NCBI GenBank assembly: GCA_020348445.1
Contig: CP070751.1
Location: forward strand, 2,712,750-2,776,749
Reading direction: 5' to 3'
Length of the DNA stretch: 64,000 nucleotides
Origin: Thermoplasmata archaeon
GTDB lineage: Archaea > Thermoplasmatota > Thermoplasmata > GCA-020350865
Position 1 is the first letter of the stretch, and each line of letters begins with the position of its first letter. A model generated the notes under the pieces. The model worked only from the letters and a program-made list of their open reading frames with translations, searched no databases and had not been told where the DNA came from. This document shows positions 3,004 to 34,583 of the stretch, piece after piece. The position numbers were made by a program, and so were the translations under genes.

Positions 3004-6000
3004 CTACCAATCAACATCCCAGATGCAGTTGTCTGTAACGTGAATATACAATCCATATCCAGGCTCTATCTGGACGAGGTCATCAGGTGAATATGAACCT
3101 GGGTCCCACATCTTCCATGGATCTGATGCATCGCTTGCATTATAATACATAACCATGTCAATTGACCCAGGACCTGAAATGAACTCGAAAGCCTCGTTTG
3201 CACCTGTACCTGAGAACCTTGTGGTAAGAGAAGGATACCCCACAAGATTCCAGCCTGATCTAAGCTGAATTCCTGTAGTAGTGGGTGAAGGCACACTCCC
3301 AACCAAACTCAAAACATCATCCTGATACATGTAGATCCAGATACCCATTTTGCGATCGATGTTTTGCAGATCATTTCCAAATGGTTTACCTACTCTGTAA
3401 TGCTTCCATTGATCGGTGCCGTCGCTGGCATCGTACCATTGGACAGCACGATACTTACCATCAATATACTCCAGCACTTTTGTTATTGTAGTATCGCTCT
3501 GATTCATAGGAACTGATATCATATTCCAGCCTTTCTTCAATGGAATCTGAAATTGTATGCCATCCAAAACAACGATCACATTTCTACTAATATACATATC
3601 TGCAATTGTATATCCAAATCTCAAACCTTCTGTCGCAGATGCGTTGTGAGGTGTATAGTAGAATTTGCCACTGGTTTGATTCTCAATGTATTCTGTGACA
3701 ACAACCCACCTTACCCATCCATCAAAAGGAGTTACAAAAGGTGCTCCTATATGAGGTGTCCCAAAGGTGTCATTGACCCATAATAACGCGCTTGGAACAC
3801 CTATGTTGTCCACATCCACGACCCTGACATTCATGTACCAATTTACTGTGAGGCTGGACTGGGTATCGCCGAAATCGGTCTTGGCCTTGTCAAATGTTGT
3901 GTTCAAAGTCCAGGGGTGGGAATTTCCGGTTACATAAAAATCATCCACCAGAGGATTCGCAGAGGATATGGTACAGTTGTAGAAGCTGGGATTAGAGCCC
4001 GAATCGCAATGGACACTGGCCACATTGGAATCTATAATTTGGGTGCGGAATATGTTTGCATTGGAGTTCTGTGTAAAATTCATTCCTATCTCCGAATCTG
4101 TTATCACATTATTAGTAATAGTTGGATTGGAGGATCTGCAGGTGATACCATGATCATTATTAGTAAGAGTGTTTGCATCTCCAACTGTGGCATCAGAATT
4201 CCAAAGGTAAATACCATGGGTGTTGTCGTAAATTCGATTGTAATCTCCAATTTGAGCAAGATCTTTGTTTATGAGATAGACACCGTAATCATTCTCGTAT
4301 ATATCATTGTCCAAGACATAGACAGAACTTATATCGTCCTGTGTTATATATATTCCATAATTACATTTATAGACCCTATTTAAATCGACATACAGGCCGT
4401 TTGCACTGCCCAAATAAATGCCGTAAGTGTCCCAATTATCGGGTTTTGCAGTTATTTCATTTTGAGCAATAATTACGCCGGATGTCCACCATCCATATAC
4501 ACAATAGGAGCCATTGGCTCCCTGCTGGCCACTGGAGATGTTGATGCCTCCAACTCCGGTGGTAATATTGTTATTGTCGAGGATAATATCAGAAGAGGAT
4601 TGGATGTTCATCGTAGCTCCAGCAGCGTAACCAGGTTCTGCTCCCATAATTACATCTCCTCCATCTCCACCAACGATCAGATCGCTTTTTTCTATCCTTA
4701 TGTTGTTACAATCCAAGATATTTGCTGCCTCGCCTCCCCAGCCAGCCATAATACCTTGAGAGTGGTAATTGTTGCCACCCTTTCCACCTTTGATATCTGT
4801 TATGTCACAAACCATATCGTAAGCGTTTGTGCCATAAAATCCAGAACCGCCGGGTCCGGCCATAGCACCGGGACCGTAATTATCCCCTCCCCTTCCTCCA
4901 GTCAAATCGCAACCTTCAACAGAACCAGTGCTTTGGATGGAGTAAAGGGCATTACCACCCCTACCATTTAGACCCTCTCCGAGCATCATCACCCAATTGT
5001 CTCCGCCCTCACCACCAATTAGATCAGATCCAGTTATCGTGGCATTTGAATCCAATAAAGCCAAAGAATTTAGAACCACACCATGTCCTCCATTTCCAGA
5101 AGATGTCTCTGTGGCAAAAGGTGTATTATTTCCCCCGTCTCCACCAGTTGATGTGGATCTGGTAATAGTGACACTGTCTGATGCTGAAAGACTAATACCG
5201 TTGCCCCCATTGCCACCTGATGGGAAAGGAAATATCATCATAGTGCCTGTACCCGTGGTGTTTCCTCCCTTGCCACCTCTGATATTCGGATTCAGGGAAA
5301 TATCGCAAACGCAAGGATATCTGCAGTTATAAAGGGAAACGGCGCCGCCACCATCACCACTTGTCCAAACATTGTTTGGCATTCCTCCCCAATTTGCATG
5401 GTTGTCTCCACCGTCCCCGCCAAGTATGTTATCATTGTTATAGATGAGAACCTGACCGTTGTTATCATTGTCTGTTATGTTAATTGCGTCGCCGCCATCA
5501 CTGGCATTTCCGTCGAATAGGGCGTAGTTTTCTCCACCTCGCCCTCCTTTTATGATGTTATTATCACTGATTTCTATGGCATTTGCCATGTTCGGCACAG
5601 GAAACAAATAGATTCCCCCTCCGCCTTTGCCTGCAGTGCGATCGCTTCCTGTGTTGTTACCTCCGCGGCCCCCTAAAATCAGTTCATTGTTGATGATTCT
5701 GATGAATCCATCGTAATTGTCATCGTAGATTGCATAGCCGCCAGCTCCACCACCGAGGCCTGCATCATCACCACCAGAACCTCCAATAATTGTATTTTTT
5801 GAGATGGTCACGCCATTTGCAGGACCAAAGGGATTTTCAAGATATATCCCACCTCCTCCGTCTCCACCACCTGCTGAAGCATTCAGTCCATAAATGGTGT
5901 TATCGTCGATAAATGCATCAGAACTGTCAACTGAGATTGCGTATCCTTCATTTTCGTAAAAATCGTTTTTCACGATATTTGGTGATGGCATAATCGATAT

Positions 6001-6594
6001 GCCAGGTTCACCGAGACATCTGATTCCATTGGCAATATTGTATCTAAATGTGGAATTGGAGATCGTGACATCTCCATTGGTGCTGATGCGAAGCGAGTAC
6101 CCTGCAATACCAGCATATTCCACTGTGCAATAATCCATGGTGGCGTTACCTGGCTCATCTATGAAAATCCATTCCCAATCCCCTGGTACAGGAAGGGTTT
6201 CATTTGATGTGAACGTTATTGTGCTGGCAGGAGAACCCTTTGCTGTAAGATCACCAAAATTTATTAAGAAACCTGAATTGGCAAATCTCACTGTGCATCC
6301 CTGCTCTATTATAAGTTCATAGCTTCCATCGATGAAATATCCAGAATCGATTACATGTACCGGATCCGGTGTATTTTTCCAAACTACAACGCCATTTACT
6401 GTCCCGTCACCATCCTTGGGCCCGCCATCTTCCAACGATGTAGAGGAAAATGGATCATGCATTACATAGCCCTCTGCAGTGTCTATAATAATTGGAAACA
6501 CTATAATAAATCCACCGAAGACCATACTCAATGTCAGAACCAAGGAGCACACCTTTCTAATAACGTCTTTTCTACTATAATCCACACTTTTCAT
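3004..6594 (-). CDS. Large secreted parallel beta-helix (NosD/pectin-lyase-like) surface protein with glycine-rich GGxGG inserts
   Basis: N-terminal signal/TM, AAGGAGGA RBS, repeated I..N.I..N..GI coils, about 11 GGxGG...GxGG units, C-terminal GWN(M/L)(I/V)xxP duplicated domain. Confidence 0.75.
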   Translation of the reverse strand: MKSVDYSRKDVIRKVCSLVLTLSMVFGGFIIVFPIIIDTAEGYVMHDPFSSTSLEDGGPKDGDGTVNGVVVWKNTPDPVHVIDSGYFIDGSYELIIEQGCTVRFANSGFLINFGDLTAKGSPASTITFTSNETLPVPGDWEWIFIDEPGNATMDYCTVEYAGIAGYSLRISTNGDVTISNSTFRYNIANGIRCLGEPGISIMPSPNIVKNDFYENEGYAISVDSSDAFIDDNTIYGLNASAGGGDGGGGIYLENPFGPANGVTISKNTIIGGSGGDDAGLGGGAGGYAIYDDNYDGFIRIINNELILGGRGGNNTGSDRTAGKGGGGIYLFPVPNMANAIEISDNNIIKGGRGGENYALFDGNASDGGDAINITDNDNNGQVLIYNNDNILGGDGGDNHANWGGMPNNVWTSGDGGGAVSLYNCRYPCVCDISLNPNIRGGKGGNTTGTGTMMIFPFPSGGNGGNGISLSASDSVTITRSTSTGGDGGNNTPFATETSSGNGGHGVVLNSLALLDSNATITGSDLIGGEGGDNWVMMLGEGLNGRGGNALYSIQSTGSVEGCDLTGGRGGDNYGPGAMAGPGGSGFYGTNAYDMVCDITDIKGGKGGNNYHSQGIMAGWGGEAANILDCNNIRIEKSDLIVGGDGGDVIMGAEPGYAAGATMNIQSSSDIILDNNNITTGVGGINISSGQQGANGSYCVYGWWTSGVIIAQNEITAKPDNWDTYGIYLGSANGLYVDLNRVYKCNYGIYITQDDISSVYVLDNDIYENDYGVYLINKDLAQIGDYNRIYDNTHGIYLWNSDATVGDANTLTNNDHGITCRSSNPTITNNVITDSEIGMNFTQNSNANIFRTQIIDSNVASVHCDSGSNPSFYNCTISSANPLVDDFYVTGNSHPWTLNTTFDKAKTDFGDTQSSLTVNWYMNVRVVDVDNIGVPSALLWVNDTFGTPHIGAPFVTPFDGWVRWVVVTEYIENQTSGKFYYTPHNASATEGLRFGYTIADMYISRNVIVVLDGIQFQIPLKKGWNMISVPMNQSDTTITKVLEYIDGKYRAVQWYDASDGTDQWKHYRVGKPFGNDLQNIDRKMGIWIYMYQDDVLSLVGSVPSPTTTGIQLRSGWNLVGYPSLTTRFSGTGANEAFEFISGPGSIDMVMYYNASDASDPWKMWDPGSYSPDDLVQIEPGYGLYIHVTDNCIWDVDW

Positions 6595-6835
6595 TGCTAT
6601 TCCTCCTTTAAAAACGCTGCTTTATCTTCTATTTGATTATGTTTAAGTCCTATTTAATTGTTTTAGAACATTTTTTGAATTTTAGTGATATGATATTGAC
6701 ACCCTTGTACAATGTTGATATATAATATACTTTTAACAAGGGAAATAATGTGGGTTTTGTTCCAATTCCTAAATCTTTATTTATCATGCCCAACCTTAAG
6801 GTGTAAAGAGATATTCCTTATTAAATGGTGAGCCA

Positions 6836-7318
6836 ATGAACATCTACATTACCATGACAGGTTTTTCAGACTGGGCAATTTTCAACAGTCTATGGGCCGT
6901 GGTGAGGTTGAGGCAATATATTCCCGATAGAATATATATTTTCACGACAAAGAAGAGAAGAAGGCAGGCTGAGCTTGCGAAAAGGAGATTCATTATATTA
7001 CTCAAGGAGTACGGTAAAAAGCCAAACATTGTGATCAGTGAGGTGCCTAAAGCAGATTTTGTGACATCGGGATGGCGCATCAACGATGTAGTAAAAAAAG
7101 AAAAATCACTGGGGAATAAAATAGCAATCGAAGTAACGCCTGGAAGGAAGGCCATGGTTGCGGGAGCCCTGGTTCCCAGCATCCAGGGTAAGGTTGATCA
7201 TGTGTTCTACCTCTATCTAGAGGATGTCGATTATGCGGACAACCTATTTTTACGAATTCCTCTGACTGTACAGCATTCCCATGATTTCATGGAGGAGATC
7301 AAGTTTGCGGGTAAGTAA
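6836..7318 (+). CDS. Stand-alone CARF-domain protein (putative cyclic-oligonucleotide sensor or ring nuclease)
   Basis: Rossmann-like pattern: first strand IYITMTGFS (GxS motif), PDRIYIFTT, and CARF motif-II-like IAIEVTPGRKAM; 160 aa with no fused effector. Confidence 0.7.
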   Translation: MNIYITMTGFSDWAIFNSLWAVVRLRQYIPDRIYIFTTKKRRRQAELAKRRFIILLKEYGKKPNIVISEVPKADFVTSGWRINDVVKKEKSLGNKIAIEVTPGRKAMVAGALVPSIQGKVDHVFYLYLEDVDYADNLFLRIPLTVQHSHDFMEEIKFAGK

Positions 7319-8399
7319 AGTAATTTCAAAAAAAGACCTCATGATCCTCTTCAATGAGATATACCTCTCAAAAAAGAGATGGTTTGATGTAAAATTTCCA
7401 TTTTATGATGTAAATCTTTTTAGCTGTGATATTGGAGCATATGAAATCAGAAATATAATTACCAGAAATGAGTTCGAGAAAGTAAAGCGTGAGCACAACC
7501 CTGAAAATGATTTTCTTCAAAACGATCTGCCGCGATTTTCTGATCTCAGGGACTGTTTTTTATCCTCCACCTTTCTGCCTTTTTCGAACTTCACAGCAGT
7601 GAAGGAGAGATTAATGGAACTTGCTAAGACGATAAAAAGCCCTGGGGGAAGGTCAAAACCTCTTTATTTGGCCTTGGATACCAATCTCGTTTACTTTAAG
7701 TTCTTTTCCAGATATTTTCCTTTGGATAGTACAGACGGTGATTTACGGGTGACAGCCGTAGATTTCAGGATCGCTTTAAGCGACATAGTGAGGGAGGAAA
7801 TCGACACAAATATCAAATACAAGTACAGATCCTCAAATCTCAAGAAGATGAGAGAGGCATTTGGCCATGCCCAGATTGTGGATGAGTTCATTAACGCAAG
7901 TGCCAGAAAAACAAGAATGGCAAAGAGCGCTCAGAACGAAATTAAGCTCCTTTTTGCCCAGTTGGAGGCTGAAAGGGCCGAATCCGGAAATTTCCCAAAG
8001 GACAAGGAGGAAAGGGATAGACTCATTGCAAAGTCATACTCAAACTTCGAGAAGGACAGAAACGGTGAAGTGTTGCTTCTCACCGCTGATGAGGATATGG
8101 CATATCATGCCAAGAATGCTGGTCTGCTTCAAGAGACCCTGATAATCCCGCATAACATAGGTTCTAAAGGGAAAATCGAGCCCATAAGTCTGGTGAACCT
8201 GATTTTCGACTGTGCCCTGACGTTTGGTGTTGTCAGATTAGGTGGTGTTGGGGTAACAATTTTCGGAGAGTGGAAAGGGAAAAGCTTCGATGATTACACA
8301 AGGGAACATTTGAAAATATGGCTCGAAAATGACAGTAGGATCAAGAAAGAATTTGAAAGGGATATAGGTATAGCAAATGCCATTGATGAAATCGGTTGA
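7305..8399 (+). CDS. PIN-domain ribonuclease-like protein
   Basis: YLALDTNLVY (PIN strand 1), IVREEI, ERDRLIAKSY, VLLLTADEDMAYHA acidic tetrad pattern. Likely TTG start at 7305 behind GGAGGA (7291-7296), overlapping the CARF stop. Confidence 0.75.
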   Translation: MRVSKVISKKDLMILFNEIYLSKKRWFDVKFPFYDVNLFSCDIGAYEIRNIITRNEFEKVKREHNPENDFLQNDLPRFSDLRDCFLSSTFLPFSNFTAVKERLMELAKTIKSPGGRSKPLYLALDTNLVYFKFFSRYFPLDSTDGDLRVTAVDFRIALSDIVREEIDTNIKYKYRSSNLKKMREAFGHAQIVDEFINASARKTRMAKSAQNEIKLLFAQLEAERAESGNFPKDKEERDRLIAKSYSNFEKDRNGEVLLLTADEDMAYHAKNAGLLQETLIIPHNIGSKGKIEPISLVNLIFDCALTFGVVRLGGVGVTIFGEWKGKSFDDYTREHLKIWLENDSRIKKEFERDIGIANAIDEIG

Positions 8400-8531
8400 G
8401 AAATCACCGTTTTCAGACATTTTTTCCGATAAATAGGTATAATCAGCAACTTAACGTCCTAAGTAATGCGATAAGGTAAAATTAAGCGAAAATTTTATGA
8501 CGGTCCACTGTCTTACTCTATTTGGAATAGC

Positions 8532-8862: not shown

Positions 8863-9915
8863 TCATTTACTCCATCTAAATTCCCGTCTGCACTGGGGGC
8901 ACATGCCGGTGCCATCCATGAAGAACTGCAGGTTCTTACAGTCACAGTTTGAGCATATGAACTGCTTATGCTTCTGTTTTGATCTGATCGTTGTGGGTCT
9001 GCGGCTATATCTGAATCTGTGTCCACATCCTGGGCAGCGTCCCAATCCATCTGCAAAAAATTGGAGACTTGGATTTCCGCAGTTCTCGCATTTAAATTGC
9101 TCTTTCCCCCCTTCCCTTCCTGGGCCAGAAGGCCTTGGTCCAGGTCTTATTAAGGATTCTCTTCCCCTTCTCCTTTCAGGTCTTCTTACGCCCATTTTAT
9201 CATCGATACGTCTTTCCCATCCCTCAGGAGGATACCTTCTTTGGGAATCCCGTTGATAATCCTGTCTTTGTCTTGGAGGATAACCCCTCCTGGAATCTTC
9301 ATAACGGGGTGCTCTTCTTTCCTGTTGGGCCCTGCTCCACCCGCAAAGTACGCAGTTATCAGGATCAGTATACATCTCGCTTTGGCAGTTGGGGCAGTAG
9401 TTTCTTCCAGGCTCCTTATATCTGGGATCCCTTATTTGGTCCGGGGGCCTTCTTCTGTCTTCGTACCCATAACCCGAATCTGGTCTCTCCCTGGCTCTCC
9501 CTCTCTGATAGGGGGGCTCTCTTCTTTGGGGATAGGCCACTCTTTGTTGGTAACCCCTTTGCATACGAGGATCTTCTCTTTGCATTCTTTGAGGATATCG
9601 TCTTTCTTGGGGAGGATACTGCCTTCTAGGCCTGTCCTGGTAACCTGTGCGTTGGGGTGGTGGATAATCATATTCTCTTCTCGGCCCCTCTCGATATCTG
9701 TCTTCGTATCTATCCCTTGGATATCGTGGTGGTGGTCTTTGGGGTGGTGGCCGCGCCTGTGGGGGCCTTTGTGGAGGATATTCTCTATCATAACGAGGAC
9801 CCGGCTGCCTACCTCTTTCTCTAGGGGAAGATGCCCCTCTCTTCCAGCCACACATGACACATGAATCAGGGTCCGAGAATATTTCCCTCCCGCAATTGGG
9901 GCAAATTACCACCAT
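8863..9915 (-). CDS. Arg/Pro/Gln/Tyr-rich low-complexity protein with four zinc ribbons
   Basis: CPNC..CVMC, CPNC..CVLC, CENC..CPGC, CSNC..CPQC separated by RYPPQ/RRPP-rich disordered tracts. Confidence 0.8.
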   Translation of the reverse strand: MVVICPNCGREIFSDPDSCVMCGWKRGASSPRERGRQPGPRYDREYPPQRPPQARPPPQRPPPRYPRDRYEDRYREGPRREYDYPPPQRTGYQDRPRRQYPPQERRYPQRMQREDPRMQRGYQQRVAYPQRREPPYQRGRARERPDSGYGYEDRRRPPDQIRDPRYKEPGRNYCPNCQSEMYTDPDNCVLCGWSRAQQERRAPRYEDSRRGYPPRQRQDYQRDSQRRYPPEGWERRIDDKMGVRRPERRRGRESLIRPGPRPSGPGREGGKEQFKCENCGNPSLQFFADGLGRCPGCGHRFRYSRRPTTIRSKQKHKQFICSNCDCKNLQFFMDGTGMCPQCRREFRWSK

Positions 9916-10086: not shown

Positions 10087-11340
10087 ATGGAATTGGAGTA
10101 TCTATACTGGCTCATACTTCTCCTTCTCTTTGGACGGGCCCTAGGCGAGTTATTTCGTCGTTTTGATTTTCAGCCTTTAATAGGGGAGGTCATAGCAGGC
10201 CTTATATTGGGGCCTGCGGTCCTTGGTTTGATAGTTTTTTCAGCTGGAGAAGAAACACCCTTAGAATATTTCAGCCAGTTTGGAATTATAATGCTCATGC
10301 TACTTGCAGGGCTTATCACAGATTTCGAATCCTTTGCAGAAAATAAGATATCCAGCATAGTAATTGGAGCAGTTGGTGTGGTGGTCTCTTTTATCATAGT
10401 GTTCCTCCCACTTAGGTTCCTTTTTGGCCTTGATCTTCTTGCTTCGCTCTTTTTAGCCGCCGTTCTCAGCAATACCGCAATCGAGGTCTGTGCCGGGATA
10501 TTCATACATAGTCCAAATCATAAAATAAAGAATATAGTCCTGGGAGCAAGCTTCGTGGACGATATCATAGCTGTATTTCTTATCGGTATCGTGTCTTCCA
10601 TGGTTCTATTGCCTGATAAAACCCTTGATATCATGGAGATAGTATGGCTTGCCGCAAGGGTCATCATATTTTTATTTTTGGCCCTGGTTGTGGTTAGCTG
10701 GCCCTTGGAGAAGCTCTTTGATAAACTCCATAAAGGAACAGAGGAGTTCAAATGGATGCTTACAACCACGTTCATTCTCACTTTTTTATTCGCACTCGTT
10801 GCCACATGGGTTGATTTGCACTATGTGATCGGCGCATATATAGCGGGCTTGATAGTTGGGAAATGGGGATCCAAAGTCGGACCACTTTTGAGGCGTCGCA
10901 TTACATGGCGCAGGATCGTAGATGACGTAGATCCCCCTCTTAGGGCCATCTTTGGCCCCATATTCTTCGGTTATATCGGGCTTTCTGCCAGTATATTGAT
11001 TGCCGAAGGTGACACTTCAGTAGGAGTGGTGGTACCTCTAATTACCGTTTTAGTGATATTGGTATTTGCAGGGAAAATACTGGGATGCGGTCTAGGAGCG
11101 AAAATTTGCAGATTCACAAACAACGAGTCCTTCACAATAGGAGTGGCAATGTGCGGACGTGGTGCCCTTGAGTTGGTTCTTCTGAGTTTCGGACTGGAGA
11201 TCGAGGCTATTTCTGAATCGCAGTTCATATCTGTCATCATAGTGACCCTATTTACGATAGTGCTCACACCGATTTTCTATACTCTCTCTGTTAAAAGAAG
11301 TGAAAAAAAGAAAACGAAATCCTCTGAAAAACCCGCCTAA
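10087..11340 (+). CDS. Cation:proton antiporter, CPA2/KefB family
   Basis: About 12 TMs; QPLIGEVIAGLILGP, GASFVDDIIAV, PIFFGYIG, CGRGALEL motifs. Confidence 0.88.
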   Translation: MELEYLYWLILLLLFGRALGELFRRFDFQPLIGEVIAGLILGPAVLGLIVFSAGEETPLEYFSQFGIIMLMLLAGLITDFESFAENKISSIVIGAVGVVVSFIIVFLPLRFLFGLDLLASLFLAAVLSNTAIEVCAGIFIHSPNHKIKNIVLGASFVDDIIAVFLIGIVSSMVLLPDKTLDIMEIVWLAARVIIFLFLALVVVSWPLEKLFDKLHKGTEEFKWMLTTTFILTFLFALVATWVDLHYVIGAYIAGLIVGKWGSKVGPLLRRRITWRRIVDDVDPPLRAIFGPIFFGYIGLSASILIAEGDTSVGVVVPLITVLVILVFAGKILGCGLGAKICRFTNNESFTIGVAMCGRGALELVLLSFGLEIEAISESQFISVIIVTLFTIVLTPIFYTLSVKRSEKKKTKSSEKPA

Positions 11341-11966
11341 ACTCCCTTCTTCTCTCCCCAAATGAGCTTATGAAGCTGAGGTAAAACTCTCACATAAAGC
11401 CCATCGGCAAGAACCCATTCGGCGAGTTCCTTCAATTTCCTACCTCCCACAGGTGTCATAATAAGGCTGCACGTGGGTTTATATTTTGCGATTATTTCCT
11501 TTGCATATTCATAATCCTTATTATCGGCTATTATGAACTTCAACTGGTCATTTAAGCTCAAAAGCTCGAGATTAGAGAAGTTCATTTTTTCCTGCATACC
11601 TGATGAGGGGCATTTGATATCAAGGCTGATTACCATGGATCCTAAACAAGGAATATTCTCGATTGATTTTGAGCCGTTGGTCTCCAGGCAGACCTCATAG
11701 CCTTTGTCCATAAGTTTTTGGATAAGTGAAATAACCTCATTTTGTAAAAGCGGTTCCCCGCCTGTTATACAGACATGATTTTGTGAAAAATCCTTTACCT
11801 TGGCCATCACTTCCTCGCAGGACATCTCCTTTCCTTCCTCGTAAGCGTACTTGGTATCACACCATGAGCACCTGAGATTGCAGCCAGTCATTCTCACAAA
11901 TGTTGTGGGGATGCCTATCAGGATACCTTCGCCCTGAATGGATGCGAAAATCTCGTTGACCTTCAT
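11337..11966 (-). CDS. queE: 7-carboxy-7-deazaguanine synthase (radical SAM)
   Basis: EIFASIQGEG, FVRMTGCNLRCSWCDT (CxxxCxxC), ITGGEPLLQ, LETNG, VLPQLHK; adjacent to queC. Confidence 0.93.
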   Translation of the reverse strand: MKVNEIFASIQGEGILIGIPTTFVRMTGCNLRCSWCDTKYAYEEGKEMSCEEVMAKVKDFSQNHVCITGGEPLLQNEVISLIQKLMDKGYEVCLETNGSKSIENIPCLGSMVISLDIKCPSSGMQEKMNFSNLELLSLNDQLKFIIADNKDYEYAKEIIAKYKPTCSLIMTPVGGRKLKELAEWVLADGLYVRVLPQLHKLIWGEKKGV

Positions 11967-11977
11967 TTTCTTTCCTC

Positions 11978-12682
11978 TTAGTCTTCATATTCCATGGGAT
12001 CCTCTATTCCCGCTTCTTTGAAACCCTTTAGCCTGAGAATGCAGGAATCACATTTTCCGCAGGCTAAATCGCCACCTTTATAGCAAGACCATGTAAGGTG
12101 AAATGGTACATTCAGCCTCTCACCTTCTTTTACTATTTCGGCCTTTGTCAGATTGATTAAGGGGTATTTGATCACAACGGGTTTTCCTTCTATTCCGGTT
12201 TTGGTTCCCAGTTCTGCCACCTCCTGGAAGGCCTCAAAGTATTCAGGTCTACAATCCGGGTATCCGCTGTAATCCAGGGCATTGGCCCCTATAAAAATAG
12301 CTTGGGCCTCAATAACCTCGGCATATCCCAGGGCAAGGGAAAGAAGTATGGTATTTCTGGCTGGGACATAGGTTATGGGAACATCGGATCCTATTTTATT
12401 TTCATCTCGCTTTTCGGGAATTTTAATTTTCATGTCAGTTAAGGCTGAGCCACCTACCTGTGATATATCGATTTTTAGTATTTTATGTTCTTTTACTTCA
12501 TACCAGTTCGCGATTTTTTGTGCACTTTCCAGCTCCTTATCATGCCTTTGGCCATAATCAATAGACAGTGGATATAATTCATAATCTTCCTCGTGGGTAC
12601 GGGCCAGGGTTACTGTGGAATCCAGACCACCTGAAAGTAGTACCACTGCCTTTTTTCTCAAATCCTTCACCTTGGCATCCAT
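11978..12682 (-). CDS. queC: 7-cyano-7-deazaguanine synthase
   Basis: LLSGGLDS, YGQRH, TYVPARN, DYSGYPDCR, TWSCY, CGKCDSC. Confidence 0.96.
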   Translation of the reverse strand: MDAKVKDLRKKAVVLLSGGLDSTVTLARTHEEDYELYPLSIDYGQRHDKELESAQKIANWYEVKEHKILKIDISQVGGSALTDMKIKIPEKRDENKIGSDVPITYVPARNTILLSLALGYAEVIEAQAIFIGANALDYSGYPDCRPEYFEAFQEVAELGTKTGIEGKPVVIKYPLINLTKAEIVKEGERLNVPFHLTWSCYKGGDLACGKCDSCILRLKGFKEAGIEDPMEYED

Positions 12683-32711: not shown

Positions 32712-33197
32712 CTAATATTTCCAACCTTGCTCTCTAAAGAATTCTATTAATGAAATACATTTCATATTATAATCTTTACAAACATCCGGTATTTTTGGCC
32801 GAGCAGTGGGATCAGTCCTTGGGTGTTCAGATGTTATGACTGTCCATTTTCTTGTTTTTGCTAAAGCAATTAGAAATGGATCTGCTTCTGGAATAGTCTT
32901 ATCAGGATCTATAAGTCTCTGGTATTTTGATGAAATAATACTGACTTCTTTAAGTTGTTCCTCATCTAAATCAATGAACATAGTTTTATGTTTCTTAGCC
33001 CATTCCAACATCTCATCATCAACTTTTTTAAGCTCATTATAAACTTCTTTTGGAGCGATTAATAATCTTTGTTTAATGAGAGCTTCAATATCTTTCCATA
33101 ATTTATTAAAAATATCTGGAGGATAAAATCTTCTCCATAAATCTATCAAGGCACATGTATCAATACAATAACCCTTGGTTAGCCTTGCTTGAATCAT
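32712..33197 (-). CDS. DUF4411-family PIN-like protein (putative toxin)
   Basis: YCIDTCALI..WRRFYPPDIF..LW, EVYNEL, ADPFLIALA, VITSE, KIPDVC. Confidence 0.88.
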   Translation of the reverse strand: MIQARLTKGYCIDTCALIDLWRRFYPPDIFNKLWKDIEALIKQRLLIAPKEVYNELKKVDDEMLEWAKKHKTMFIDLDEEQLKEVSIISSKYQRLIDPDKTIPEADPFLIALAKTRKWTVITSEHPRTDPTARPKIPDVCKDYNMKCISLIEFFREQGWKY

Positions 33198-34393
33198 GCA
33201 TTAACCTCAAGTAACTTCTCCACCTTAGGAAGATATTTGAGATGAATATCGAGGTAATCAGCCACATCACTGCAGGTGATCCTATCATTCTTATATGATT
33301 CTAAGACTAATGTAACGAATGGAGTTCCATTTTTTTGAATGCATTCTTTAGGCGGATCTCGCCGCCCTCCCGTTTTTTTCTCTTGCTCTCTTTTTGCTTT
33401 TGTTTCCCATTCACCATGTTTTCTTTGATAATATCTTCTCGATGTTCGCTTGAATAGGAGTAACCGCCTAAGAATCACTTCTGGACTTACATTAAAATCT
33501 TTAGCAATTTTCCCAAGGGTTCTACTAGACCATTCTTGGGGGGTGTTTATTCCCCTAACAAAGTCATGATTTAATAGATCCTCTTCGGGAACCAAAAATG
33601 AACCTGAAAAATGATTACAAAATATTTCAATTGCTCTTATTTCCCCAGATGAGGTGATGCGGTTTTTGGATTCCCAATTCTCTACTCTAATTGGATCACA
33701 TATCCCTCCCTTTTTTAAAAGAAGATGTCCGAATTCGTGCCAAAGAGAAAAGGTTCGACCTGTAATACTATCTTTTGTATTTAGAATAATAACTGGAATG
33801 TCACCATCAGTTAAAGAAAAAGCTCTTAATTCTTCGATAGGCATGGACATCTGAAATACCAACACACCGAGATTTTCAATTGACATTTTCCATTGATTAA
33901 ATGCATCAGTATGGTTCTCCCAGCTGAATTGTTGATGGACTGGGATGTTAATAATTTTCCTCACCTTCTTTGCTAAACTTTCCGGATTCGCTGAGAGTGT
34001 AACATGACCGATTTTCTTCATAATGTCGCTATGAAAATCGCTTTCTAGTTCCTTAGTCAAAGAATGAAGCCGTCTCGCTCTTCTAATTGCTAGTCTAGTT
34101 TTAGGAGAAACAGGTATTTTATCTTCTCCCGGTAATGTTCGAAAATCCTTAGGAAGCGGGGGTTCTTTTGGAGGCTCTGTTAAAAAAAACACTGCAAGCG
34201 GTCTCTTGTAATAAGTAGAAAGGGTTTTTACTTGGTTCAATGTGGGTTTTTTATCTCCCGATTCCCACATTTCTACCAGATTAGTGCTGATATTAAGCCT
34301 AGAGGCGACATCATTTATAGTCCTTCCAATACTCTCCCTTGCCCATATAAGGACCTTTGGTTTAACATCAACCTCTAAAGATTTTTTTGACAT
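33194..34393 (-). CDS. XRE-family HTH + ImmA/IrrE Zn-metallopeptidase
   Basis: LIWARES..DVASRL..WESGDKKPT HTH; FSLWHEFGH (HExxH); EIFCNHFSGSFLVP; ATG 34393 behind GGAGGG; overlaps DUF4411 by 4 bp. Confidence 0.9.
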   Translation of the reverse strand: MSKKSLEVDVKPKVLIWARESIGRTINDVASRLNISTNLVEMWESGDKKPTLNQVKTLSTYYKRPLAVFFLTEPPKEPPLPKDFRTLPGEDKIPVSPKTRLAIRRARRLHSLTKELESDFHSDIMKKIGHVTLSANPESLAKKVRKIINIPVHQQFSWENHTDAFNQWKMSIENLGVLVFQMSMPIEELRAFSLTDGDIPVIILNTKDSITGRTFSLWHEFGHLLLKKGGICDPIRVENWESKNRITSSGEIRAIEIFCNHFSGSFLVPEEDLLNHDFVRGINTPQEWSSRTLGKIAKDFNVSPEVILRRLLLFKRTSRRYYQRKHGEWETKAKREQEKKTGGRRDPPKECIQKNGTPFVTLVLESYKNDRITCSDVADYLDIHLKYLPKVEKLLEVNA

Positions 34394-34583
34394 AGCTATA
34401 TTCCCTCCAAATGCTGTTTCAGCTCCTATACACTCGGAATGGGCACACAGCTTTATCTTTTTATCGCTCCTCTCCTCAATTTGATATGTTTTTTCGCTAT
34501 AATCTGAATGCTCAAAAAAGCTATAAAATCGATTTTGGATTACCAAACCTCAACCTCATTTTAAGGCTTTGATGGGAGATACC

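Follow-up and report, generated by a model that had tools for sequence, protein, structure and literature searches.

A two-gene CARF-PIN locus in a Thermoplasmata archaeon most likely encodes the separated halves of a Crf6-family sensor-RNase

Protein families in which a CARF domain is fused to a PIN nuclease have been known since 2014 (PMC4012209), and in Sulfolobales such fusions lie beside type III cassettes of CRISPR systems (PMC6546367). One family, Crf6 (legacy name CARF_m1), is entered in Supplementary Table 2 of the 2025 CRISPR-Cas classification as CARF plus PIN and as typically not CRISPR-associated (PMC12669027). The nearest solved structure to the proteins treated here is that of SiRe_0806 from Sulfolobus islandicus, a fused CARF-PIN protein deposited apo (PDB 9jxw) and with cyclic tetra-adenylate (cA4; PDB 9jxx). 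Presumably it is the protein of Wang et al., a paper that by its title concerns a cA4-activated, CRISPR-associated PIN nuclease and "dimerization of protein dimers" (Wang et al., NAR 2025, gkaf744; via PMC13577387). Here, we analyze a CARF gene and a PIN gene that lie side by side in 64 kb of a Thermoplasmata archaeon genome (contig CP070751.1, C1:2712750-2776749; hereafter the window, to which coordinates refer unless another locus is named). We conclude that the two genes most likely specify the halves of a Crf6 CARF-PIN effector, which a single operon with translational coupling would yield as distinct polypeptides. A preliminary description of the window had proposed a split CARF sensor and PIN RNase answering to a signal that is produced elsewhere, and that proposal fits the folds of the proteins, the adjacency of the genes in 48/48 loci, the existence of fused forms, a model of the complex, and the rarity of Cas10.

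The upstream protein (ORF1, for open reading frame 1) matched the PADLOC hidden Markov model (HMM) CARF_m1--CARF (PDLC01971) with an E value of 1.5e-36, residues 1-155 falling on profile positions 1-154 of 156, and it also matched the N-terminal 151 positions of the fused model CARF_m1--CARF_PIN (PDLC01973; E 2.9e-31). Pfam returned Csa3_N alone, below its cut-off. An AlphaFold model built from 20 orthologs had a predicted local distance difference test score (pLDDT) of 75, and its top Foldseek matches were CARF structures bound to cA4 or to cyclic hexa-adenylate (cA6), among them Cam1 (8t65; E 5.9e-5). These matches also included Csm6 of T. thermophilus, SiRe_0806, Can2, Csa3, and Cad1, as well as the Crn1 ring nucleases Sis0455, Sso2081, and Sis0811. 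Thus, the small protein, previously proposed to be a CARF protein from its motifs TMTGFS and EVTPGRK, does adopt a CARF fold by both profile and structure comparison.

The downstream protein (ORF2) matched the fused PADLOC model as well (E 8.3e-25), covering profile positions 169-454 of 465, and scored 22.4 bits against Pfam PIN_4, for which the cut-off is 21.9. It consists of an N-terminal adaptor (residues ~1-105), a PIN core (~105-300), and a C-terminal domain that bears the GEWxGK motif. D125 (in DTN), E165, D262 (in LTADEDM), and D302 were invariant in 20 orthologs, and their spacing is that of a putative PIN acidic tetrad. In fold comparison, the PIN model (pLDDT 82) aligned over residues 1-363 to residues 151-418 of SiRe_0806 (Z 15.2; root mean square deviation, 3.9 A over 254 residues), and residues ~105-290 matched many PIN domains with Z scores of 7-12, including that of MJ 3i8o (Z 12) and those of Rrp44, SMG6, Nob1, and VapC (Z 7-9). 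The sequence profile of the PIN protein found no match in the PDB, and SiRe_0806 was recovered for it by fold comparison alone. The CARF profile, for its part, had the SiRe_0806 N terminus as its best PDB sequence match, with DITPGRK...YxYL in common. Because the two proteins match the N terminus and residues 151-418 of SiRe_0806, respectively, the pair is a CARF-PIN protein divided where the CARF domain ends.

How the two genes are joined is conserved. Both open reading frames were found on the + strand as the preliminary description had placed them, and the features of the locus are as follows.

6836-7318, + strand: CARF sensor subunit gene (ORF1), 160 amino acids (aa), of the Crf6/CARF_m1 clade by profile, fold, and motif match
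7305-8399, + strand: PIN RNase subunit gene (ORF2), 364 aa from TTG 7305, the start being set by junction comparison
6827-6831, + strand: Shine-Dalgarno-like GGTGA, 4 nucleotides (nt) ahead of the CARF ATG, read from the sequence and of putative function
7291-7297, + strand: ribosome-binding site GGAGGAG for the PIN gene, within the CARF coding sequence, assigned from sequence and conservation
7305-7318, + strand: overlap of 14 nt between the CARF and PIN genes, indicating translational coupling by sequence and junction comparison
8410-8425, + strand: runs of T4 and T6 just past the PIN stop, possibly an archaeal oligo-T terminator

The frame of ORF2 differs from that of ORF1 and is open from an ATG at 7281 to the stop at 8399. 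When the junction was compared across 27 related loci, a TTG or GTG stood at the PIN start position behind GGAGGAG in 4/4 members of the genus, and the ATG at 7281 was unique to this window. TTG 7305-7307, which follows GGAGGAG by 7 nt, is therefore the supported start, and the proposal of a TTG start served by a ribosome-binding site inside the CARF gene is backed by the relatives. The CARF stop had also been said to overlap the TTG; the genes do overlap, by 14 nt, but the TTG lies inside the CARF gene and the stop codon itself (TAA, 7316-7318) does not touch it. In other families, a PIN start of GTG or ATG overlaps the TGA stop of CARF (GTGA or ATGA) behind AAGGAGGAGGTG at the same place, such that the relative frame of the two genes differs between the two junction types. 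Overlapping or abutting junctions, in these two geometries, were kept in all split loci for which the junction was inspected.

The small size of a CARF protein with ring nuclease motifs, together with reading frames that overlap in different frames, might be taken to indicate two independent proteins, a Crn1-like ring nuclease beside an unrelated PIN RNase, or a fused gene broken by a frameshift. A frameshifted fusion was ruled out, as start codons and ribosome-binding sites are kept in two relative frames, and for the same reason the split, as judged from sequence conservation, is old and maintained and is neither a frameshift nor a sequencing error. Sizes are moreover uniform: a near-length search for stand-alone CARF proteins found 136 homologs, nearly all of 158-161 aa, in metagenome-assembled genomes (MAGs) of Thermoplasmata and Methanomassiliicoccales, and when the PIN alignment was used as a profile in an exhaustive search, 361 representatives were returned, most of 330-375 aa. 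Independence also fits poorly with the adjacency of the genes, which extends across phyla, and with a model of the complex that passes its controls (see below). We conclude that independence of CARF and PIN is very unlikely and that this explanation as a whole, broken gene included, is barely credible.

That CARF and PIN are conserved neighbors is borne out by the survey. A CARF match was present in 102/401 sampled genomes of the class and in 33/105 genera. PIN lay directly downstream of CARF on the same strand in 28/30 of the best loci, the remaining two being cut by a contig end, and it followed CARF directly, always as a separate reading frame, in 20/20 distant loci in which CARF was 24-40% identical. 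In total, CARF was followed by PIN in 48/48 surveyed Thermoplasmata loci with enough sequence. A wider scan of one genome per species with two peptide patterns gave 37 loci, from Thermoplasmatota plus three Archaeoglobus MAGs and one Methanomethylicia MAG, and CARF was upstream of PIN in all but five, three of which were cut close upstream. Another of the five, in an Archaeoglobus MAG (L089), has ~620 nt of upstream sequence, and its PIN match is without the N-terminal part. We note that in Archaeoglobus sp. UBA234 (L086:3223-3878) the reading frames of CARF and PIN lie ~650 nt apart, unlike the overlapping junctions elsewhere; the gap could be an insertion, or the PIN N terminus could be displaced into another frame. 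Pairs of this kind had been suggested for Thermococcales in the preliminary description, and none was among the 37 loci of the scan, which was limited to the two patterns.

Fused forms exist and are rare. A few of the PIN relatives are 510-531 aa long and carry a CARF domain ahead of the entire PIN protein, and they retain G-R-S and G-R-K at the two CARF motifs discussed below. A word-index search for longer CARF relatives had found none, which reflects a limit of its sensitivity, as the profile search later found them. The contigs that encode the fused forms are too short for gene context. Because PADLOC includes stand-alone CARF_m1 protein models (its CARF_m1 set being PDLC01971, PDLC01972, and PDLC01973) and because rare fused relatives occur, the split form belongs within the CARF_m1 clade. 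The family is reportedly catalogued in the 2020 CARF census of Makarova et al. Thus, the novelty implied by the preliminary description did not hold up, as the family is catalogued and PADLOC already models a stand-alone CARF_m1.

The putative ligand pocket of the CARF protein is conserved. Motif I is G9-F10-S11 (G9-x-S11) and motif II is G103-R104-K105, and across 20 orthologs there was no variation at G9, S11, and R104, while conservation at G103 and K105 was at least 90%. In an HMM alignment, these motifs fall on G9-T10-S11 and G104-R105-K106 of Sso2081, the residues with which that ring nuclease binds and cleaves cA4; its main cA4 binder is Arg105, the transition state is stabilized by Lys106, and Ser11 sets the position of the scissile phosphate (PMC10018336). 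Since the motifs are both conserved and aligned to those of Sso2081, the pocket is under selection and looks like a cA4-binding and -cleaving site. A pocket predicted to cleave cA4 fits the label "sensor, effector, ring nuclease" of the 2025 classification.

CARF and PIN are predicted to bind one another. The model of the complex had an interface score (ipSAE, interaction prediction score from aligned errors) of 0.89, and the best of three controls reached 0.02; at least 97% of contacts were common to its runs, and the pLDDT of the partner was at least 85. In the predicted interface, CARF helices 16-24 and 47-59 and a conserved C-terminal segment (136-145) face PIN residues 10-21, 44-46, and 349-363; the surface used on PIN is thus that of its N- and C-terminal helices and lies away from the active site. 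We regard it as probable that the pair is a two-subunit sensor-RNase, in which CARF and PIN form a stable complex and an oligoadenylate-like ligand acts as the gate. That the ligand is cA4 itself is a more tentative proposal, to which we give somewhat less than an even chance.

A tight complex, a small protein encoded first with a PIN protein second in overlapping genes, and a PIN core that resembles VapC toxins (Z 7-8) are also what a toxin-antitoxin system would provide, as the layout is the classic one of VapBC. PIN would then be a VapC-like toxin and CARF its protein inhibitor, with a ligand either unneeded or serving only to modulate release, and the failure to find a signal synthase in carriers (counts given below) would be accommodated. 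The upstream protein is, however, a full CARF fold without a DNA-binding antitoxin domain, and motifs I and II are kept across CRISPR-less lineages, which is not expected of a mere plug. Natural fusions, together with a fused homolog solved with cA4, fit poorly with a labile antitoxin, and the predicted interface is at the terminal helices of PIN rather than its active site. An antitoxin variant of the sensor-RNase reading is likewise the less probable one, given that CARF and PIN are fused in some relatives and that the motifs of the ligand site are conserved. We therefore consider a toxin-antitoxin pair decidedly unlikely.

How a CARF:PIN sensor-RNase might work can be outlined. CARF would bind PIN stably through the helices and the C-terminal segment named above, seated on the N- and C-terminal helices of PIN. 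CARF subunits would then pair, as is usual for CARF domains, and so create a nucleotide pocket whose lining is G9-x-S11 and G103-R104-K105, and a cyclic-tetra-adenylate-like ligand in that pocket would switch on the RNase at D125, E165, D262, and D302. Activation would probably be driven by dimers coming together as a dimer of dimers, by analogy with the characterized fused homolog. Finally, because the pocket carries the ring nuclease residues of Crn1, the sensor probably also cleaves its own ligand and so switches itself off. We infer the identity of the ligand, the activation of PIN, the cleavage of the ring, and the biological role, which might be stress- or virus-triggered degradation of RNA.

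Several observations weigh against the two-subunit sensor-RNase. When CARF was folded alone, confidence was low for the C-terminal 55 residues of its model. The ipSAE mark was reached by 58/80 solved complexes and 2/110 mismatched pairs, counts that are only a rough calibration here, as our own alignments were used for the complex model, and the pass may derive in part from likeness to the solved fused homolog. The fused CARF-PIN protein ST0035 bound cA4 weakly and without activation of RNase (PMC6546367). Moreover, housekeeping genes surround the pair, and its tree agrees with taxonomy, which is unusual for a defense module. Finally, no cyclic oligoadenylate (cOA) synthase, whether Cas10, mCpol, or a CD-NTase, was found in this 81.7%-complete MAG. 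Among carriers, by which we mean the 75 genomes whose CARF match was strong (E <= 1e-14), Cas10 was present in 2/75, both times on a different contig, and among five carriers that were 98-99% complete, mCpol was found in 0/5 and SMODS over its cut-off in 1/5. As nearly all carriers are without a known synthase, the ligand may not be cA4.

Absence of a synthase should be read in light of the assembly. Our genome is a MAG of 5.16 Mb presented as a "single contig" that consists of ~350 pieces joined by 100-N runs. Over its first 2 Mb, the pieces run from larger to smaller, and the window begins right after one 100-N spacer. With so many joined pieces and a completeness of 81.7%, absences in this assembly are weak evidence alone. 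No match to Cas10 (TIGR02577, TIGR02578, and PF22335), Cas1, or mCpol was found in the whole of this incomplete assembly, and when all of it was scanned by k-mers for CRISPR arrays, five candidates emerged, all of them tandem or protein-coding repeats. The sole SMODS match was weak and was rejected as the CCA-adding enzyme. Hence, the absence of Cas10 and CRISPR arrays that had been noted for 64 kb extends to the assembly as a whole, incomplete as it is, and that of Cas10 is echoed by nearly all carriers. Cas10, by which a type III cOA effector is recognized in its locus or genome, was thus found in neither for this 81.7%-complete MAG. For the survey of the class, which carries more weight than this one assembly, PF22335 (Cas10 palm2) was dropped, as it passes its cut-off in an E. 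coli control genome in which Cas10 is not expected; credible Cas10 matches then occurred in ~15/401 genomes of the class and in 1/32 carriers that were at least 90% complete.

Perhaps the same two-subunit machine responds to an endogenous, non-CRISPR signal and serves to turn over RNA, in housekeeping or under stress, instead of defending against viruses. Candidate signals would be RNA ends with 2',3'-cyclic phosphates, as for the CARF of RtcR, or an oligoadenylate made by an unrecognized archaeal synthase. That 73/75 carriers are without a Cas10 match agrees with such a role, as does the lineage-wide presence of the pair in several families (37/44 in f16, 7/8 in f26, 5/6 in f20, 3/3 in f24, and 4/4 in f1). 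A quick maximum-likelihood tree of PIN (48 rows, with loci cut by contig ends left out; a careful search was unfinished) grouped sequences by taxonomic family (17/17 in f4, 4/4 in f1, and 6/7 in f16), with one divergent clade mixing Archaeoglobus, Methanomethylicia, and two Thermoplasmata rows. Because the tree groups by family, it suggests that the pair descends mainly vertically. Neighbors of the pair include core genes (CysRS, PGK, PolB, and LeuA-like), the classification calls the family typically not CRISPR-associated, and the divergent CARF of RtcR belongs to a system regulated by damaged tRNAs (PMC7790460). An endogenous signal has to contend, however, with a pocket that retains the exact cA4-binding and -cleaving residues of Crn1 and with a nearest solved relative that binds cA4. 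Gaps in MAGs and unbinned CRISPR loci inflate the apparent absence of Cas10, and no candidate endogenous synthase or ligand was found. We hold tuning to an endogenous, non-CRISPR signal to be unlikely.

The genes around the pair vary. In the window, they encode a beta-helix surface protein, a zinc-ribbon protein, a Na+/H+ exchanger, and QueE/QueC, and in other families they include LeuA-like, beta-CASP RNase, CysRS, MMPL, PGK, and PolB genes. There was no recurrent third partner among the flanking genes, which differ between families and are of housekeeping type, and no known defense gene was recognized among the large open reading frames of the 64-kb window.

Individual neighbors merit brief description. 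Directly upstream of the pair and on the opposite strand (3004-6594, - strand) is a gene for a 1196-aa protein of right-handed beta-helix/NosD repeats with an N-terminal transmembrane segment, probably a surface protein. Convergent with the PIN gene (8863-9915, - strand) is a gene for a 350-aa protein rich in Arg, Pro, Tyr, and Gln with several zinc ribbons (weak Pfam matches to DZR and Zn_Ribbon_YjdM), for which no conserved linkage to the pair was found in other genomes. The radical-SAM (QueE-like) and QueC genes of the 7-deazaguanine/archaeosine pathway lie 3 kb downstream (11337-12682, - strand) and are not kept beside the pair in other families. At or near the upstream side of CARF in three Thermoplasmata genomes (L039:1404-3047, also L035 and L037) is a beta-CASP/metallo-beta-lactamase RNase gene (RMMBL), which may mark a lineage-specific neighborhood of RNA metabolism. 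Farther away, and unrelated to the pair, a 450-aa protein (33194-34546, - strand) combines HTH_3 with an IrrE-like Peptidase_M78, as is typical for ImmA/IrrE-type regulators.

As a discovery the locus is incremental, being a well-documented further example of a catalogued family. What the survey adds is that the two-gene form dominates, that fused forms are rare, and that coupling at the junction is conserved. Residues of the putative cA4 site are kept, yet ~97% of carriers are without Cas10, which sharpens the question of what CARF sensors outside CRISPR systems detect. We speculate that the Thermoplasmata split CARF-PIN pair is a vertically inherited, non-CRISPR RNase, set among housekeeping genes, that answers to an oligoadenylate-like or 2',3'-cyclic-phosphate RNA signal from an unrecognized source, such as products of RNA damage or a synthase other than Cas10. 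This broader proposition strikes us as rather improbable; if true, CARF signaling would be an autonomous stress pathway of archaea. The pair is compact, at 160 plus 364 aa, and could be expressed.

Among described systems, the pair is closest to Crf6/CARF_m1, whose HMMs both proteins match and with which it shares a CARF sensor, a PIN RNase, and the want of a CRISPR link. The family row, however, gives a single CARF+PIN architecture, whereas here and in nearly all Thermoplasmata relatives there are two overlapping genes. SiRe_0806 has the same order of domains, with our CARF corresponding to its N-terminal ~150 residues and our PIN to the remainder, but it is a single polypeptide of ~420 aa, is CRISPR-associated according to the title of the paper, and is ~11-13% identical in structural alignment. 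VapBC likewise has a PIN nuclease gene that comes second and overlaps a small upstream gene, but the upstream protein here is CARF only, with none of the DNA-binding domains of antitoxins (AbrB, RHH, HTH, or PHD), and the PIN protein, of 364 aa, carries additional domains at its N and C termini and has fused forms. The Crn1 enzymes Sso2081 and Sis0455 (CARF_m13/Crf5) resemble our CARF in being small, in matching its fold, and in a near-identical numbering of motifs I and II, with weak sequence similarity (E 0.03). Crn1, however, acts alone in genomes with type III CRISPR, whereas the CARF protein of Thermoplasmata is coupled to a PIN protein in carriers that are mostly without Cas10.

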